IMG/VR virus record: IMGVR_UViG_3300029539_000104
Coordinates: 1-5,061 of that record
Source of the DNA: a virus
Length of the DNA: 5,061 bases
Direction: 5' to 3' (one strand)
A program made the translations under genes and the position numbers. Below are positions 117 to 5,061 of this stretch, one piece after another. Every line of letters starts with the position of its first letter. Position 1 is the stretch's first letter. Under the pieces are notes generated by a model. The model made no database searches, had not been told where the DNA came from, and was given only the letters and a program-made list of their open reading frames with translations.

Positions 117-359
117 ATGAAAGTTACTGTAGTTGGTAAGTCCCGCCGCGCTGGTACTTCTAAACAGGGTAAAGACTATGATTTTACCACTCTCATGGCC
201 GAATATTCGATGCGTGCAAACGATGACAATGACGGTGTGCAGGTTGATAGAATCAATGTCGACGCTCGCATGATGCCTTATGCGCTCATTGTCGTTGGCG
301 CTACGTATGATCTCGACTTTGATCGCAACGGTTATCTTCTCGGAATTGAGGAAGTCTAA
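117..359 (+). CDS. ssDNA-binding protein, filamentous-phage gene V (gpV)-like, 80 aa.
   Basis: Its size of 80 aa is close to the 87 aa of M13 gV. It has an N-terminal motif MKVTVV...AGTSKQGKDY, which resembles M13 gV MIKVEIK...SGVSRQGKPY (recalled, not searched). An AAAGGA Shine-Dalgarno (SD) lies 10 nt upstream. It sits immediately downstream of rep, as in Ff phages. Confidence 0.6.
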   Translation: MKVTVVGKSRRAGTSKQGKDYDFTTLMAEYSMRANDDNDGVQVDRINVDARMMPYALIVVGATYDLDFDRNGYLLGIEEV

Positions 360-419: not shown

Positions 420-493
420 GGCGGGGTAGTGCAATGGTCGCATGTCACTCTCTGAAGGTGAAGCTGCTGGTTCGAATCCAGACCCCGCAACCA
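420..493 (+). tRNA. tRNA-like gene with anticodon CUG (Gln), 74 nt including an encoded CCA.
   Basis: Manual cloverleaf, arm by arm:
- Acceptor stem: 420-426 pairs with 483-489, giving 6 bp plus a G1:A72 mismatch.
- U8 is present.
- D-stem: 429-432 pairs with 440-443.
- D-loop: AATGGTC, which contains G18 and G19.
- Anticodon stem: 445-449 pairs with 457-461.
- Anticodon loop: cuCUGaa, with U33 and a purine at position 37.
- Variable loop: 4 nt.
- T-arm: GCTGG-TTCGAAT-CCAGA, i.e. the canonical GGTTCGAATCC.
- Discriminator: A490.
- CCA: 491-493.
The 3' half resembles bacterial tRNA-Gln. Confidence 0.6.
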
Positions 494-541: not shown

Positions 542-1708
542 GTGTATAAGGTTGCGAAGCGCTTCGTCGCCCTTCTCGCGGCTCTGATGGTTTCTCTTTC
601 TTTGTGTACTCCTTGTTTTGCTGGATTCGAAACTGAAGCTGATATGCCATCTTTGGATGATTTCTATAGTCATCATGGTTCGTGGTATGTTTGGCGTAGT
701 GCTACTATTTCTGGCTTCTCTTATTATGAGTTGCTTTGCTCTCCTATCTCTGTTTCTGGCACTTCTTATTCTCTTCCTTATTCGGTTTCTTATTCCACTA
801 ATGCGTGTGATGTATCTTATTTAGCTAATGATTCTGGCAAATCTTATGATTATGCTTGCGCTTTTCCTCTTCCTCTTCGTGGTGCTTCTGGTTATTGGTA
901 TGAACTTCCCTCTTTCCCTATTGGTTCGGGGCTGAAGCTTGATACATGCTCTGTACGTGTTTATTCTACCGCTGCTCAACCTTCTGGAACTTATGGCTTT
1001 TTAACTTCTTCTTTTAGCCGTTCAGACCGTATTCTTTCTTTCGGTAATACTTACGGTTCTTCTTATGGCTCTTCTACTGATACTTTAGATTCGTTTACTT
1101 TTTCATCTCCTTTTTATTCATATCCTTTTGCAATTCGTGAAACTACTTCTTCTTCTGCAAGTGGTTATGTTTTACAGGGTGGTGACAATAATTTTATTAT
1201 TCCTTCGCCTGACTATTCAAGTACCCGTGCTTTGAATCTTGGTGTTACTCGTTATCTCCGTGGCACTAATTCTTTTGTCCCTTATCCGTCTGGATACACT
1301 ATCCCATCTTCTGATATTGGCTTTGTCTTTGTGAAGCAACCTTCTTCTTCTCCTGTTTATTCTGCTTCTGCTTTTGATACTACCGGTTCTTTTGCTTTTT
1401 CTCTTCTTGTTCCCTCTTCTCGTTTGACTGATGTTAAGCTTGGTGACTGGCTTTCCGATTCTCCGGAGGATTTACAAGATGTCATTACTAACGAGTTTGG
1501 CGTTGATTCTGATACCATTAAAGACTCCAAAGATAACTTGAATTCTTGGAATTCTGCTTCCTCTGTCGATTCTGATATTGCTTCCGGTGCTTCTGGTCTT
1601 CTCGGCGGTCTTTTTCAGAATTTAGGCACGTTTCTCTTTTCTGTTTCTCTCCTTTGCTTCGGTGCTGTTGTTCTCCGAATGCTCATTAGAAAGGCGGTTG
1701 ACGGATGA
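542..1708 (+). CDS. pIII-like minor coat / adsorption (receptor-binding) protein, 388 aa, with a GTG start.
   Basis: - The N-terminus MYKVAKRFVALLAALMVSLSLCTPCFA-G is a signal peptide.
- The body is extremely rich in Ser/Tyr/Thr/Gly, of low complexity, and has Cys pairs.
- The C-terminus has a hydrophobic anchor LLGGLFQNLGTFLFSVSLLCFGAVVL followed by RMLIRK.
- An SD aaaggtgg lies upstream of GTG 542.
- This architecture and this position (first of the virion gene block) match pIII of inoviruses. Confidence 0.6.
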   Translation: MYKVAKRFVALLAALMVSLSLCTPCFAGFETEADMPSLDDFYSHHGSWYVWRSATISGFSYYELLCSPISVSGTSYSLPYSVSYSTNACDVSYLANDSGKSYDYACAFPLPLRGASGYWYELPSFPIGSGLKLDTCSVRVYSTAAQPSGTYGFLTSSFSRSDRILSFGNTYGSSYGSSTDTLDSFTFSSPFYSYPFAIRETTSSSASGYVLQGGDNNFIIPSPDYSSTRALNLGVTRYLRGTNSFVPYPSGYTIPSSDIGFVFVKQPSSSPVYSASAFDTTGSFAFSLLVPSSRLTDVKLGDWLSDSPEDLQDVITNEFGVDSDTIKDSKDNLNSWNSASSVDSDIASGASGLLGGLFQNLGTFLFSVSLLCFGAVVLRMLIRKAVDG

Positions 1709-2952: not shown

Positions 2953-2966
2953 CCGCTGAGAGAAAA

Positions 2967-3008
2967 CGCCGCCGACCATTTTTAATGGTCGGCGACGTTT
3001 TCGCATTT
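2967..3008 (+). terminator. Rho-independent terminator after the virion-protein gene block.
   Basis: A GC-rich stem with 2967-2979 paired to 2985-2997 (10 contiguous bp, gccgccgaccat / atggtcggcgacg) and a 5-nt loop, followed by the T-rich tract TTTTCGCATTT. Confidence 0.65.
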
Positions 3009-3025
3009 AGAAAGGATTATATGTT

Positions 3026-3649
3026 ATGCTTTATGGTATTCTTATCTTTTGCATTTGCTGGCTTTTTGTTTATATCGATAACTATTGCAAAAACCCCTAC
3101 AAACTTGAGGCTGTTGTTGGTTCAAAAGGCTCTGGCAAGTCTCTGTATATGTCTCGTGTTGCTGATAAGTGGCTACGTGCTAATAAGGGGCTTATCTATA
3201 GTAATATGGGTATTGGTTACGAGTTAGAGCCGGAATACTGGAAACAGACCTTTATCCCTGATTCCCTTATTCTTATTGATGAAATAGGCGTTCTGCACTC
3301 TAATCGTGATTTTAAAACTATGCCCCGTGAAGCTGTTGAGTTTTTTAAAATGCAGCGTAAATATCATTTGACAATTATTGTATCGTCTCAGACCATGGAC
3401 TTTGATAAAAAGATACGTGACCTCTGTGACCGCATTTACCTCTGTAACCGCATTGGCTGGTTTTGTCGTCTCACTCCCTATCGCTCTTGTATCGCTATGG
3501 AACATCGCCCCGAGGGAGGGCAAGAACTCGTCAACACGGTGCGCAAGGCGGGGCGTGCAAGGTGGTATACTATCCCAAAGTCCGTGAAGCAGGTGAGCGC
3601 CTTAGAATACGATACAGAGCAGGTTATCAGCAAGACCACCCCGAAGTAA
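3026..3649 (+). CDS. Zot / pI-type phage assembly ATPase (P-loop NTPase), a minimal form of 207 aa.
   Basis: - Walker A: EAVVGSKGSGKS.
- Walker B: SLILIDE.
- The layout parallels M13 pI VYFVTGKLGSGKT...LLVLDE (recalled).
- It has an N-terminal hydrophobic segment ILIFCICWLFVYI.
- An SD aaagga lies 9 nt upstream.
- It has no long periplasmic C-terminal domain. Confidence 0.7.
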   Translation: MLYGILIFCICWLFVYIDNYCKNPYKLEAVVGSKGSGKSLYMSRVADKWLRANKGLIYSNMGIGYELEPEYWKQTFIPDSLILIDEIGVLHSNRDFKTMPREAVEFFKMQRKYHLTIIVSSQTMDFDKKIRDLCDRIYLCNRIGWFCRLTPYRSCIAMEHRPEGGQELVNTVRKAGRARWYTIPKSVKQVSALEYDTEQVISKTTPK

Positions 3650-3700
3650 AAAAAAGTTCTCCCCGTGCCCCCGTAGGGGGTCAGGGGAGTTCTTTTTTTT
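3648..3700. terminator. Long compound hairpin with an A8 tract 5' and a T8 tract 3'. It is a bidirectional rho-independent terminator immediately after pI, and a candidate packaging-signal hairpin.
   Basis: Outer stem ctcccc 3659-3664 paired to ggggag 3684-3689. Inner stem ccccc 3668-3672 paired to ggggg 3676-3680, with a gta loop. A8 (3648-3655) pairs with T8 (3693-3700). In f1/M13 the packaging signal is a terminator-like hairpin just after the last gene. Confidence 0.6.
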
Positions 3701-3759
3701 ACCGGAGCATTCCCGCCGTCTTGTCACGCGATAGCGTCTCCACCGCGTCCCCCGTCCCC

Positions 3760-3778
3760 GCAAGGGCAAAGCCCTTGC
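3760..3778. other. Intergenic hairpin gcaagggc-aaa-gcccttgc, a candidate minus-strand origin element.
   Basis: 8-bp perfect stem with 3760-3767 paired to 3771-3778 and a triloop. It lies in the GC-rich intergenic region. Confidence 0.4.
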
Positions 3779-3819
3779 CCTTCCAAAACAGGCTGGCAGG
3801 GGCTTCCGATATGTAGTGA

Positions 3820-3837
3820 CTGCCGTGACGGCGGCAG
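3820..3837. other. Intergenic hairpin ctgccg-tgacgg-cggcag.
   Basis: 6-bp perfect stem with a 6-nt loop. Confidence 0.4.
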
Positions 3838-3839
3838 CC

Positions 3840-3880
3840 GGTGGGCGTGCGTGTAATACGCCCACCTTTTTAATATTTTC
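3840..3880 (+). other. Hairpin ggtgggcgt-GCGTGTAAT-acgcccacc followed by TTTTTAATATTTTC. It is a terminator-like element and a candidate plus-strand origin (dso) nick region for the Rep_trans Rep.
   Basis: 9-bp perfect stem with 3840-3848 paired to 3858-3866. The loop contains GTGTAATA. pT181 RepC nicks in the loop of its IR-II hairpin at CTCT/AATA (recalled). A T-run follows the stem. Confidence 0.4.
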
Positions 3881-3882
3881 TC

Positions 3883-3911
3883 TTGACAACTTCTTCATAT
3901 TGTGGTAACAT
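3883..3911 (+). promoter_or_regulatory. sigma70-type promoter for rep: -35 TTGACA, a 17-nt spacer, and an extended -10 TGgTAACAT.
   Basis: TTGACA at 3883-3888. TG at 3902-3903. TAACAT at 3906-3911. The predicted TSS is about 3918-3920. An SD aaaggtgg at 3927-3934 precedes ATG 3944. Confidence 0.6.
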
Positions 3912-3917
3912 TTAGCC

Positions 3918-3947
3918 ATGGAAATGAAAGGTGGTTTTCTCACATGA
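3918..3947 (+). CDS. Nine-codon uORF (MEMKGGFLT) whose stop overlaps the rep start (ATGA).
   Basis: ATG 3918. TGA 3945-3947, which overlaps rep ATG 3944-3946. It contains the rep SD. It could be a leader or coupling ORF, or meaningless. Confidence 0.2.
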   Translation: MEMKGGFLT

Positions 3948-5061
3948 AAATGGTTGTTAAACTTGACTATGCTACGTTTGCTTTTGAGCAGGGTTCAATT
4001 TCTATTCCCAAAATCGAAGATGCTCTTTCTCAGTGTGATTTGCATTTTGCGCAGACTTCCAACGCAAGTGAGAATTCCCCTTACAATTCCCCTGCGGGAC
4101 TATTCTTTAAGCCGAATAACGGCGCCGAACAGTCTCCGCACTCTTTACAAGTTTCTGGTCATGGTTGTGAGCTTTTCCGTCCCACATTGCCGCGTCTTGC
4201 GTCACTGATGCAGGAAGGTCACGAATTCGGTCACTTTTCTCGTCTCGACTTTTGTTTTGATGTTGTGATGACCAAAGAACGCTGGCGTCAATATTATCTT
4301 GGTGTTATCTCTGCTTCTGTCGATGAGATGAATCATCCCGAAAAAGCCCGTAAGGTTCGCAAGTTCATGTATCAGGGTTATGGGGATGAGACTACTATTT
4401 ATATCGGTCGAAGAACGTCTTCATATGCTTTCTGCCGTATCTATAATAAATCCCTGCAAGACCCTGATAAAAAGCTCTGTACGGCTTCTGGTGCGCTTCT
4501 GGACTGTCCCGATGATTCCTATATCATTCGTTATGAGATTGAGTTTAAATTTACTTCTCGTGTACGTTCCGGTTCTCGTTCCGTTTATGACCCGTCTCCG
4601 CTTTTCTGGTTTTATTATGAAGACCCTGACAAGCTCTTCGCCTATCTCCGTAAAGTCTGGAATCGTTACGGGAATGATACTATTCTTCCTGATGGCTGGG
4701 AAGATATGCAGTTCGTGACTGATATTGAAGCCCGCAATATTCAGTTTGTTAAGGACTTATTGCATCCCCTTAGTGATGACCTTGCACAAAAGTTTTCCGT
4801 ATCTATCCATACCGTAGAACAGAAAATGTCTTATGTCGCTAATATCTTTGGACACCGTATCATCGATATTCTGCTTTATCGTCCTGAGCTGCTTTTCTTC
4901 GCTTGTTGTAAGTGGGAGCAGTATTATAATGAGCGTCTTCCGTTCTCTCCTCTTGCGTTGACACAGGAAGTTGCACAATTTTCTGAGTCTTCGCGCATTG
5001 CCGTTGAGGAGTTCCGAGAAGTTGCTGAAGACCCCTCTCCTTTTAGTGACGATGGGTTTGA
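3944..5061 (+). CDS. Rolling-circle replication initiator, Rep_trans family (pT181 RepC / CTXphi RstA type). It runs off the window end and continues at 1..98, for about 378 aa in total.
   Basis: - The ORF is open in frame 2 from ATG 3944 to the window end.
- Motifs match recalled pT181 RepC: GHFSRLDFCFDV against GFTRLDLAFDFE (4241-4264).
- YAFCRIYNKS against RFIRIYNKKQ. The Tyr at 4442-4444 corresponds to the catalytic Tyr191 of RepC.
- IRYEIEFK against WRVEIELK.
- The promoter and SD described above lie upstream. Confidence 0.8.
   Translation, partial: MKMVVKLDYATFAFEQGSISIPKIEDALSQCDLHFAQTSNASENSPYNSPAGLFFKPNNGAEQSPHSLQVSGHGCELFRPTLPRLASLMQEGHEFGHFSRLDFCFDVVMTKERWRQYYLGVISASVDEMNHPEKARKVRKFMYQGYGDETTIYIGRRTSSYAFCRIYNKSLQDPDKKLCTASGALLDCPDDSYIIRYEIEFKFTSRVRSGSRSVYDPSPLFWFYYEDPDKLFAYLRKVWNRYGNDTILPDGWEDMQFVTDIEARNIQFVKDLLHPLSDDLAQKFSVSIHTVEQKMSYVANIFGHRIIDILLYRPELLFFACCKWEQYYNERLPFSPLALTQEVAQFSESSRIAVEEFREVAEDPSPFSDDGF
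4983..5061. repeat. Second copy of the 79-nt terminal redundancy (identical to 1..79).
   Basis: Exact identity to the first 79 nt of the window. Confidence 0.9.

Follow-up and report, generated by a model that had tools for sequence, protein, structure and literature searches.

The hairpin at positions 3840–3866, which lies between the Zot-like gene and rep in a small filamentous phage genome, is best explained as the site at which the double-strand (plus-strand) origin is nicked, a reading to which we assign a probability of roughly 0.8 on the basis of comparative sequence analysis and analogy with mapped origins. We favor this reading because the loop of the hairpin is invariant among relatives, its stem covaries, the element is linked to rep, its geometry is that of mapped nick sites, and the Rep protein belongs to the Rep_trans family.

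The window, by which we mean the whole stretch of 5061 bases that was analyzed, corresponds to one circular genome of 4982 nt followed by a 79-nt terminal assembly overlap (positions 1–79 are the same as 4983–5061). All plausible genes are carried on the + strand, a strand rich in T (35%, versus 20% A), and PHROGs profiles cover these genes almost end to end (Table 1). The phage is small and filamentous and lacks a secretin, and the database records closest to it are unverified "Inovirus sp." genomes of pig origin. Rep homologues at 82–95% identity are found in more than 100 human-gut assemblies, on contigs of about 5 kb almost throughout. The sigma-70-like promoters, together with MAG bins assigned to Roseburia and Oscillospiraceae, would point to a clostridial host. 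A GC-rich block occupies positions 3703–3808, and two further inoviruses still match a segment within it, 3717–3758, at 93% identity.

Table 1 Features of the phage genome and of the region surrounding the putative nick-site hairpin (window coordinates)
Feature	Position	Strand	Remarks
80-aa protein	117–359	+	
tRNA-Gln(CTG) gene	420–493	+	
388-aa protein and several small membrane proteins		+	
Zot-like assembly ATPase	3026–3649	+	Pfam Zot
Small upstream hairpin CTGCCGT-GACG-GCGGCAG	3820–3837	+	Predicted together with the putative nick hairpin; weakly supported
5' arm GGTGGGCGT	G3840–T3848	+	Perfect complement of 3858–3866; covaries with the 3' arm in relatives
Loop GCGTGTAAT	G3849–T3857	+	5' part variable; 3' part inside the invariant motif
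Invariant heptamer GTAATAC	3853–3859	+	Sole invariant columns in 43 distinct sequences
3' arm ACGCCCACC	A3858–C3866	+	Pairs perfectly with the 5' arm
AT-rich spacer with T-run, hairpin to promoter	3867–3882	+	Possible weak terminator tail or Rep contact; clade-specific sequence
rep promoter TTGACA, 17-nt spacer, TG-n-TAACAT (TGgTAACAT)	3883–3911	+	10/12 consensus match, extended −10; −35 TTGACA at 3883–3888
rep gene, 378 aa	3944–5061, across the circular junction to window position 98	+	ATG at 3944; Rep_trans initiator by sequence and predicted fold, catalytic Tyr167 in RIYNK

The arms and loop of the hairpin, as well as the stretch TTTTTAATATTTTC (3867–3880) directly 3' of it, read exactly as given in a preliminary description of this DNA, which had proposed a plus-strand origin resembling the IR-II hairpin of plasmid pT181. 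The stem is composed of 9 bp, 7 of which are G-C pairs, and folds as single-stranded DNA at −10.9 kcal/mol (z = −3.8), a value matched by none of 200 shuffled sequences; both strands fold equally well. Just two perfect hairpins in the 4982-nt genome have a stem of at least 9 bp that closes a loop of 3–12 nt, 3840–3866 being one of them. Dinucleotide-shuffled genomes contain a mean of 0.13 such hairpins, and the 294-nt intergenic region alone contains at least one in 1.4% of shuffles. GC-rich intergenic DNA often contains short GC-rich repeats; nevertheless, a functionless chance inverted repeat is hardly credible against this expectation and is already refuted by the comparison with relatives, in which the hairpin is kept in about 110 loci with compensatory changes in the stem.

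The comparison set was assembled from pig inoviruses, 20 and 31 IMG/VR loci, four genome or MAG loci and 80 metagenome loci, and was scanned on the forward strand for any TAATA with perfectly paired arms of at least 6 bp on its two sides. The scan returned one hairpin per locus, always the equivalent of 3840–3866, always on the rep-sense strand and always adjoining rep. The hairpin is present in about 110 related loci from human-gut and pig inoviruses, representing 87 distinct origin regions, with stems of 7–10 bp and loops mostly of 9 or 11–12 nt. Two loci (L004 and L005) escaped the forward-strand scan because they are stored in reverse orientation, and the hairpin is present in both. Most other loci with no match include less than about 170 nt ahead of rep, or start within the gene, and their upstream DNA is therefore largely missing; three (L068, L079 and L139) gave no TAATA-loop hairpin in the scan despite 580–1200 nt of upstream DNA.

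Conservation within the hairpin is sharply divided between loop and stem. GTAATAC forms the only invariant columns of an ungapped alignment of the 43 distinct sequences. The first 3–5 bases of the loop vary among relatives (GCG, TCG, GTG, GGCTT, AAGAA and others) while the GTAAT part never does, and the loop ends in either TGTAATA or AGTAATA. Lack of loop conservation had been named beforehand as an observation that could refute the proposed origin, and the comparison instead finds the loop conserved, in support of an origin hairpin of the pT181 IR-II kind. The stem, by comparison, is retained as a structure: eight stem pairs are 88.7% paired across the 43 sequences, despite a 1-nt register shift in some; compensatory changes that alter both sides are observed in seven of the eight pairs (61 cells); the covariation score was reached by none of 500 shuffles; and sliding the partner by 1–3 columns reduces pairing to 39–58%. 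G-T pairs are almost absent among the stem variants, as would be expected of a hairpin or cruciform formed by DNA and not of an RNA element. Beside Reps that are 37–93% identical to the window Rep, no fewer than 17 different stems are found, among them GGTGGGCGT, CGTGGGTGT, GCGAGGGCGT, GGCGAGGG, GGCAGGGG, TGCGGGGG, CCTGTCGGG, TCGGTTGGG and GGAGGGT. An invariant loop on a covarying stem implies selection on the sequence of the loop and, for the stem, on pairing only; as a sequence pattern it is the signature of a nick site that is read as single-stranded DNA.

The same comparison bears on whether the hairpin is mainly a Rho-independent terminator that shields the rep promoter from read-through of the structural/Zot operon. 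In the window the GC-rich stem, counted as 9–10 bp, is followed by TTTTT, and the site is one of four terminator-like sites found in a scan. The window has no excess of such sites (4 found versus 6.8 expected), and a much stronger terminator-like hairpin with flanking A8/T8 is already positioned after the Zot-like gene, at 3646–3702. A T-rich tail 3' of the hairpin is present in only 42 of the 87 distinct relatives, with AAATT, TAAAT or CAATA after the stem in the others; conservation follows the loop, not the tail, and terminators do not hold a loop heptamer invariant while the stem changes. A terminator as the main function is thus unlikely, and a secondary terminator role in the window genome would be at most a local extra.

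The preliminary description had also envisaged origin, terminator and rep promoter as one tightly packed, self-regulating unit. Of this layout the terminator falls away, its tail being unconserved, while the close spacing of hairpin and promoter holds in about three quarters of the relatives, where 15–17 nt separate the hairpin end from the −35 element; insertions of 60–250 nt part the two in others (L006/L062, L019, L043, L089 and L108). Occlusion of the rep promoter by origin-bound Rep is possible, but it is not a conserved requirement. The spacer itself is clade-specific: in the window clade it is mostly the palindrome GAAATTTC, the window having AATATT, and in the insertion variants the AT-rich spacer stays with the promoter and not with the hairpin. 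The proposal that TTTTTAATATTTTC provides a second nick context does not survive the comparison either, as its TAATA is specific to the window and relatives read TTTTTGAAATTTCC, AAATTGAAATTTCC or TAAATAG.

These spacings also speak to a further alternative, namely that the hairpin is an uncleaved operator of the rep promoter, bound by Rep or a repressor, with the nick positioned elsewhere, for example inside rep as in pT181, whose double-strand origin is within repC. The hairpin is indeed 16 nt upstream of the −35 element in most relatives. Operators, however, keep their arms and not their spacer, the reverse of what is observed here, and a hairpin–promoter gap of 60–250 nt is found in at least five relatives. 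No other TAATA-loop hairpin with a stem of at least 6 bp is found on the rep-sense strand of the related loci scanned, and the sole other GTAATAC in the window (1044–1050) is without a hairpin. We consider an operator without cleavage very unlikely.

Returning to the plus-strand origin, additional elements that might contribute to Rep binding were sought around the hairpin. No consistent IR-III-like binding palindrome is found next to it in the window or in the relatives. In the clade with about 40% Rep identity, the promoter spacer was also examined for a copy of the 3' arm; the matches are suggestive in two loci (L124 and L125) and inconsistent overall. The small upstream hairpin at 3820–3837 is conserved mainly by sequence within the window clade, is swapped for other small hairpins in a few close relatives (L007, L012 and L041), and is not consistently present in the clades at about 40% identity; it is a possible candidate for an accessory or Rep-binding repeat. 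The stem itself is a candidate Rep-binding element, since it changes with the Rep clade. A search of a plasmid database with 3809–3943 gave no match.

Linkage of the hairpin to rep is observed directly in the pig inoviruses. Their structural half is shared with the window at 83–91% DNA identity; the similarity breaks off at 3808 and is found again beyond rep, at about 135–418. Between these points the pig phages carry a Rep of about 40% identity, another promoter region and another stem, with the same loop. In MT135296 about 540 nt of other DNA stand in place of the GC-rich block at 3703–3808, and MT135290 and its relatives have an unrelated upstream region; the hairpin nevertheless lies directly before the rep promoter in each case. 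The GC-rich block is absent or different in L003 too, with the hairpin again beside rep. Across these genomes the hairpin, the promoter and rep behave as one exchangeable cassette, as would be expected for a cognate origin–initiator pair, though co-inheritance with rep could also be explained by plain physical adjacency.

A contribution of the hairpin to the minus-strand (single-strand) origin, as a site for primer synthesis by host RNA polymerase or primase with a loop like CS-6 of ssoA, has to be weighed against this linkage. The hairpin is within a structured intergenic region, a conserved loop on a covarying stem is also known in single-strand origin elements (pT181-type ssoA), and the Ff minus origin is positioned just upstream of the plus origin. 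A host-dependent single-strand origin should follow the host or the structural module, yet the hairpin follows rep and differs in its stem from one Rep clade to another; it persists where the block at 3703–3808 is missing or replaced (L002 and L003), and its loop resembles Rep_trans and pII nick sites and not CS-6. The block at 3703–3808, which is conserved across Rep clades, is the better candidate for a minus origin. We therefore regard a minus-origin role of the hairpin as quite improbable.

The Rep protein was compared with the Rep_trans family (PF02486) at the levels of profile, motif and fold. The window Rep matches PF02486 with E = 1.6e-5 and 25.1 bits, below the gathering threshold of 29.6; precomputed PF02486 matches are found for many homologues at 82–89% identity and for all but one of the listed homologues at about 40% identity. 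Comparison of the Rep family profile with pT181 RepC (hhalign) gives 95% probability and E = 3e-8, and places R165-I-Y167-N-K169 on R189-I-Y191-N-K193 of RepC. The RIYNK motif noted previously is present at residues 165–169, and R189, Y191 and K193 of RepC represent the catalytic tyrosine and religation residues described by Carr et al. (PMC4797284). A profile search of the PDB recovers RepDE and RepDN (4cwe and 4cwc) with E = 0.002–0.006; the profile is needed for this, the single Rep sequence giving no match in the PDB.

Rep_trans proteins share motifs N' (D), I (RxD), II (T/SxYxG), III (YxK, containing the catalytic Tyr) and IV (xRxE), as set out in PMC5714925 following Carr et al. All five are found in the phage Rep: D8; R100-L-D102; T151-I-Y153-I-G155; R165-I-Y167-N-K169, which is accompanied by Q172 in place of the consensus E; and R196-Y-E198. 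They are invariant across Rep clades of 37–95% identity. The AlphaFold model has a mean pLDDT of 70, with the core (residues 1–270) mostly above 75 and the C-terminal 100 residues poorly modeled. RepSTK1, RepDE and RepDN account for all of its top six Foldseek matches in the PDB (E = 1.6e-9 to 8.9e-9, probability 1.00; TM-scores moderate, 0.31–0.52), and the next match is a million-fold weaker (E = 2e-3). Tyr167 is positioned on a predicted β strand (162–168), as in Rep_trans and unlike in HUH enzymes. By profile comparison, motifs and predicted fold, the phage Rep is a Rep_trans initiator.

For comparison with mapped nick sites, the reference origins of pT181, M13 and CTXphi were read from database records. 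Written as 5' arm, loop and 3' arm with the nick as a slash, these are AACCGGC - TACTCT/AATA - GCCGGTT for pT181, GAGTCCAC - GTTCTTT/AATA - GTGGACTC for M13 (3' arm beginning GTGGAC) and ACCCCCGT - CTAG/TATT - ACGGGGGT for CTXphi (3' arm beginning ACGGGGG); the window hairpin reads GGTGGGCG - TGCGTGTAATA - CGCCCACC. A CT'AA nick in the loop of a GC-rich hairpin characterizes pT181 and is common to the MOBT relaxases (PMC9371924), M13 is nicked at TT/AA in the loop (PMC11765958), and the nick of CTXphi falls between the G and the T of its apical loop (PMC4439123). In all four systems an A/T-rich tetranucleotide abuts the 3' arm of a GC-rich (in M13, mixed) stem of 7–9 bp, and AATA in this position is common to the window hairpin, pT181 and M13. 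The nick core here is GT-AA (within TGTAATA or AGTAATA) in 43 of 43 distinct sequences, and not CT'AA; the loop closest to those of the GTAATAC hairpins is AGTATTA of CTXphi. The nick is predicted at T3854/A3855 if the rule of pT181, MOBT and M13 applies, or at G3853/T3854 by that of CTXphi, with about even odds between the two.

The similarity to hairpin 2 of CTXphi ori(+) and its initiator RstA extends to the biology, as both systems represent filamentous phages with a Rep_trans-type initiator, CTXphi being a phage of Vibrio cholerae. CTXphi is nicked, as is proposed for the present hairpin, in an apical loop closed by a GC-rich stem of 8 bp (PMC4439123), and its loop–arm junction AGTATTAC is one base off AGTAATAC or TGTAATAC of the present hairpins, AGTAATAC being the version of the MT135290-like clade. 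The CTXphi cut at G/T falls one base 5' of the pT181-predicted position. In contrast to the hairpin described here, CTXphi ori(+) spans 167 bp, needs HU and is positioned upstream of the divergent rstR gene; its host is Gram-negative, and RstA is only distant kin of the phage Rep (hhalign 46% probability, E = 2e-4).

IR-II (ICRII) of pT181 and pC221, the substrate of RepC and RepD, shares with the window hairpin the GC-rich stem, the nick in the loop (predicted here) and the AATA abutting the 3' arm, and the nicked strand of pT181 is the rep-sense strand, as is the motif strand here. RepC and the phage Rep belong to one family, with the catalytic Tyr aligned and the predicted fold matched. The two differ in the core (CT'AA in pT181, GT'AA here) and in placement, the pT181 origin being inside the repC coding sequence and followed by the IR-III binding palindrome, and the hairpin here being upstream of the rep promoter. 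Furthermore, pT181 is a plasmid in which Rep is inactivated to RepC* after one round, whereas the present system is a phage.

The origin of the Ff phages (M13/f1/fd) resembles the present arrangement in being intergenic, between the morphogenesis genes and the replication gene, and has an 8-bp stem and an 11-nt loop with T/AATA beside the 3' arm (PMC11765958). It differs in that its stem is not GC-rich, pII binding repeats and an AT-rich enhancer are found downstream of the nick site, and the initiator, the gene II protein, belongs to Pfam Phage_CRI, which is related to Rep_trans in motifs only (PMC5714925). The MOBT relaxases (ICEBs1 NicK, ICESt3 RelSt3 and Tn916 Orf20) are Rep_trans-related and act on a conserved GC-rich hairpin, cleaving CT'AA in its loop, and their binding site can be far from the nic site (PMC9371924); unlike the phage Rep, they function in conjugative transfer, contain an N-terminal HTH domain and use a different core dinucleotide.

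Based on these analogies, we infer cruciform extrusion, cleavage and the exact cut position as follows. The GC-rich inverted repeat would extrude as a cruciform in the supercoiled replicative form, leaving the loop single-stranded; such extrusion has been demonstrated for the inverted repeat of pT181 (PMC5062986). Rep, through Tyr167, is predicted to recognize GTAATAC at the 3' side of the loop and to cleave the plus strand there, becoming covalently joined to the 5' phosphate, with the 3'-OH in position to prime rolling-circle synthesis by a host polymerase and helicase. After one round, the regenerated hairpin would be cleaved and the displaced strand ligated into a circular plus strand for packaging. 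The stem would provide the structure and probably part of the Rep-specific recognition, and the loop would serve as the catalytic substrate. The motif is on the gene-bearing, T-rich strand, as for inovirus plus strands, and has the same orientation in all relatives, which suggests that the strand bearing the motif would be the packaged one. Counting against the origin reading are the GT'AA core in place of CT'AA and the one-base discrepancy between the two analogies, as well as the absence of a consistent IR-III equivalent and the Rep score below the Pfam threshold.

Several other sites were evaluated as candidates for the nick and rejected. The hairpin at 2962–3002 has a ATTTTTAAT centre, so that 3840–3866 is not, as had been stated, the only intergenic hairpin with an AT-rich loop; in about 40 relatives it has an invariant stem and a variable loop whatever the Rep clade, the opposite of what 3840–3866 shows, and is therefore no Rep-specific nick site. 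The structured 360–540 region holds the tRNA gene and travels with the structural module, not with rep. CTCTAATAG at 2340–2348 matches the pT181 nick core exactly; however, it is within the ORF 1997–2608, has no GC hairpin and was treated as a chance match. A Xer/dif-like attachment site would hold its arms constant, whereas the hairpin arms vary. Contig ends were also considered as a proxy for the nick: of the 80 metagenome contigs, 21 have an end in the 300 nt that precede the rep ATG, versus about 5 expected. These ends are scattered from −46 to −296 and do not gather at about −90, more likely reflecting a coverage effect of the GC-rich structured region; the scatter means that they lend no independent support to the predicted nick.

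Better places to look for the minus origin and the packaging signal are the elements left unchanged by Rep exchange, namely 3646–3702, 3703–3808 and 2962–3002, and possibly also the tRNA region. The mechanism proposed here is not new, and an origin hairpin before rep is ordinary and expected; its GT-AA core differs from the CT'AA of pT181 and MOBT and is closest to CTXphi. The analysis extends the origin-hairpin rule of pT181, Ff and CTXphi to a new clade, and provides a precise origin and nick prediction for very abundant, uncultured inoviruses of about 5 kb from the human and pig gut, whose Rep homologues are found in hundreds of metagenome assemblies.

A more speculative model, which we offer tentatively and consider rather doubtful as a whole, is that the invariant loop is a shared catalytic substrate and that the different stems, possibly together with the upstream repeat, form a specificity code for the cognate Rep. 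Gut inoviruses might then hold many mutually orthogonal Rep/origin pairs, swapped as a cassette from 3809 to about 135 between near-identical backbones; in the window subclade the hairpin with its T-run, 16 nt before the −35 element, might also terminate read-through and allow origin-bound Rep to repress its own promoter. If this were true, orthogonal Rep/origin pairs would be the equivalent of incompatibility groups. The natural series of covarying stems around a fixed loop provides a data set on how Rep_trans enzymes recognize their own origin, and a defined origin is a prerequisite for phagemids or mini-replicons in the probably clostridial hosts. The value of the finding lies in the precision of the prediction and in this natural covariation series.

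Two intergenic elements of the inovirus genome are conserved among relatives with divergent Rep proteins (the Rep_trans-type initiator). The stem of the hairpin preceding the Zot-like gene, GAAAACGCCGCCGACCA/TGGTCGGCGACGTTTTC, is near-invariant across about 40 relatives irrespective of Rep clade, and its loop varies freely (TTTTTAA, TTTTCA, TTTT or TTTTGG); either packaging or transcription termination is a candidate role for the element. On the other side of the Zot-like gene, the GC-rich block that follows the A8/T8 hairpin retains 87–91% identity even where the Rep of the phage compared shares no more than 40% identity with that of the window. Within it, positions 3717–3758 are 93% identical in the deposited inovirus records MT135307 and MT135309, and are the only similarity to these records within the searched stretch 3640–4982. 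The whole region, 3646–3808, is a candidate for the minus-strand origin, the packaging signal or both.

Features of the window and of related loci (L numbers) collected for comparison
Feature	Location	Strand	Description
tRNA-Gln(CTG) gene	window 420–493	+	Rfam tRNA, 46 bits
Hairpin	window 2962–3002		19-nt arms, 3-nt loop; between small ORF and Zot-like gene
Long hairpin with A8 and T8 flanks	window 3646–3702		directly after Zot-like gene
GC-rich block	window 3703–3808		next after A8/T8 hairpin
Rep C-terminal ~100 residues (278–378)	window about 4772–5061		
Insertion- or duplication-bearing relatives	L006 2680–2920; L019 545–760; L043; L089; L108		
Partial rep locus	L060 6001–6168		Oscillibacter sp. 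MSJ-31, 73.8-kb contig; L061 listed alongside

In some close relatives, insertions or duplications of 60–250 nt separate the nick hairpin, the predicted plus-strand origin, from the rep promoter. The insertion in L006 is bordered by repeated AAATTTCCTC, and in L019 the GC-rich block is partly duplicated, with the copy positioned after the hairpin. Elsewhere in the window, CTCTAATAG at 2340–2348 is identical to the 9-mer nick core of the pT181 double-strand origin, for which about 0.04 matches are expected by chance. This match lies within ORF 1997–2608 and has no GC-rich hairpin at its position in the window, and it was judged coincidental. Among independently assembled metagenome contigs of related loci, contig ends are enriched about fourfold in the 300-nt stretch before the rep start codon: 21 of 80 contigs end there, at points spread over −46 to −296 relative to the ATG. 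The enrichment probably arises because this intergenic region, being GC-rich and structured, is poorly covered by reads, and not from the nick itself.

Similarity to the window Rep ends at residue 276–277 in five relatives (L023, L111, L112, L119 and L120), and in all of these except L023 a different sequence follows. On this evidence the C-terminal ~100 residues look like an exchangeable domain; the same residues are poorly predicted in the structure model. The contig that carries L112 is 50.7 kb long and could represent either a prophage or an assembly error.

Filamentous phages of 5 kb do not usually carry a tRNA. The tRNA gene of the window is flanked by genes for 80-aa and 388-aa products, and exactly one tRNA is present at the same position in every ~5-kb inovirus relative checked (L001–L022, L054, L058 and L059). 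Its identity is clade-dependent, being Gln(CTG), Gln(TTG) in L058, or Thr(AGT) in L003 and L059. The gene could encode a real tRNA, or could instead mimic an attachment site or form a structure that primes minus-strand synthesis.

In the isolate genome of Oscillibacter sp. MSJ-31, all that is present is the promoter region of rep with the initial ~56 codons of an MT135290-like Rep. This fragment (L060/L061), the sole link to a cultured host, may be what is left of an integrated relative, or its junction.
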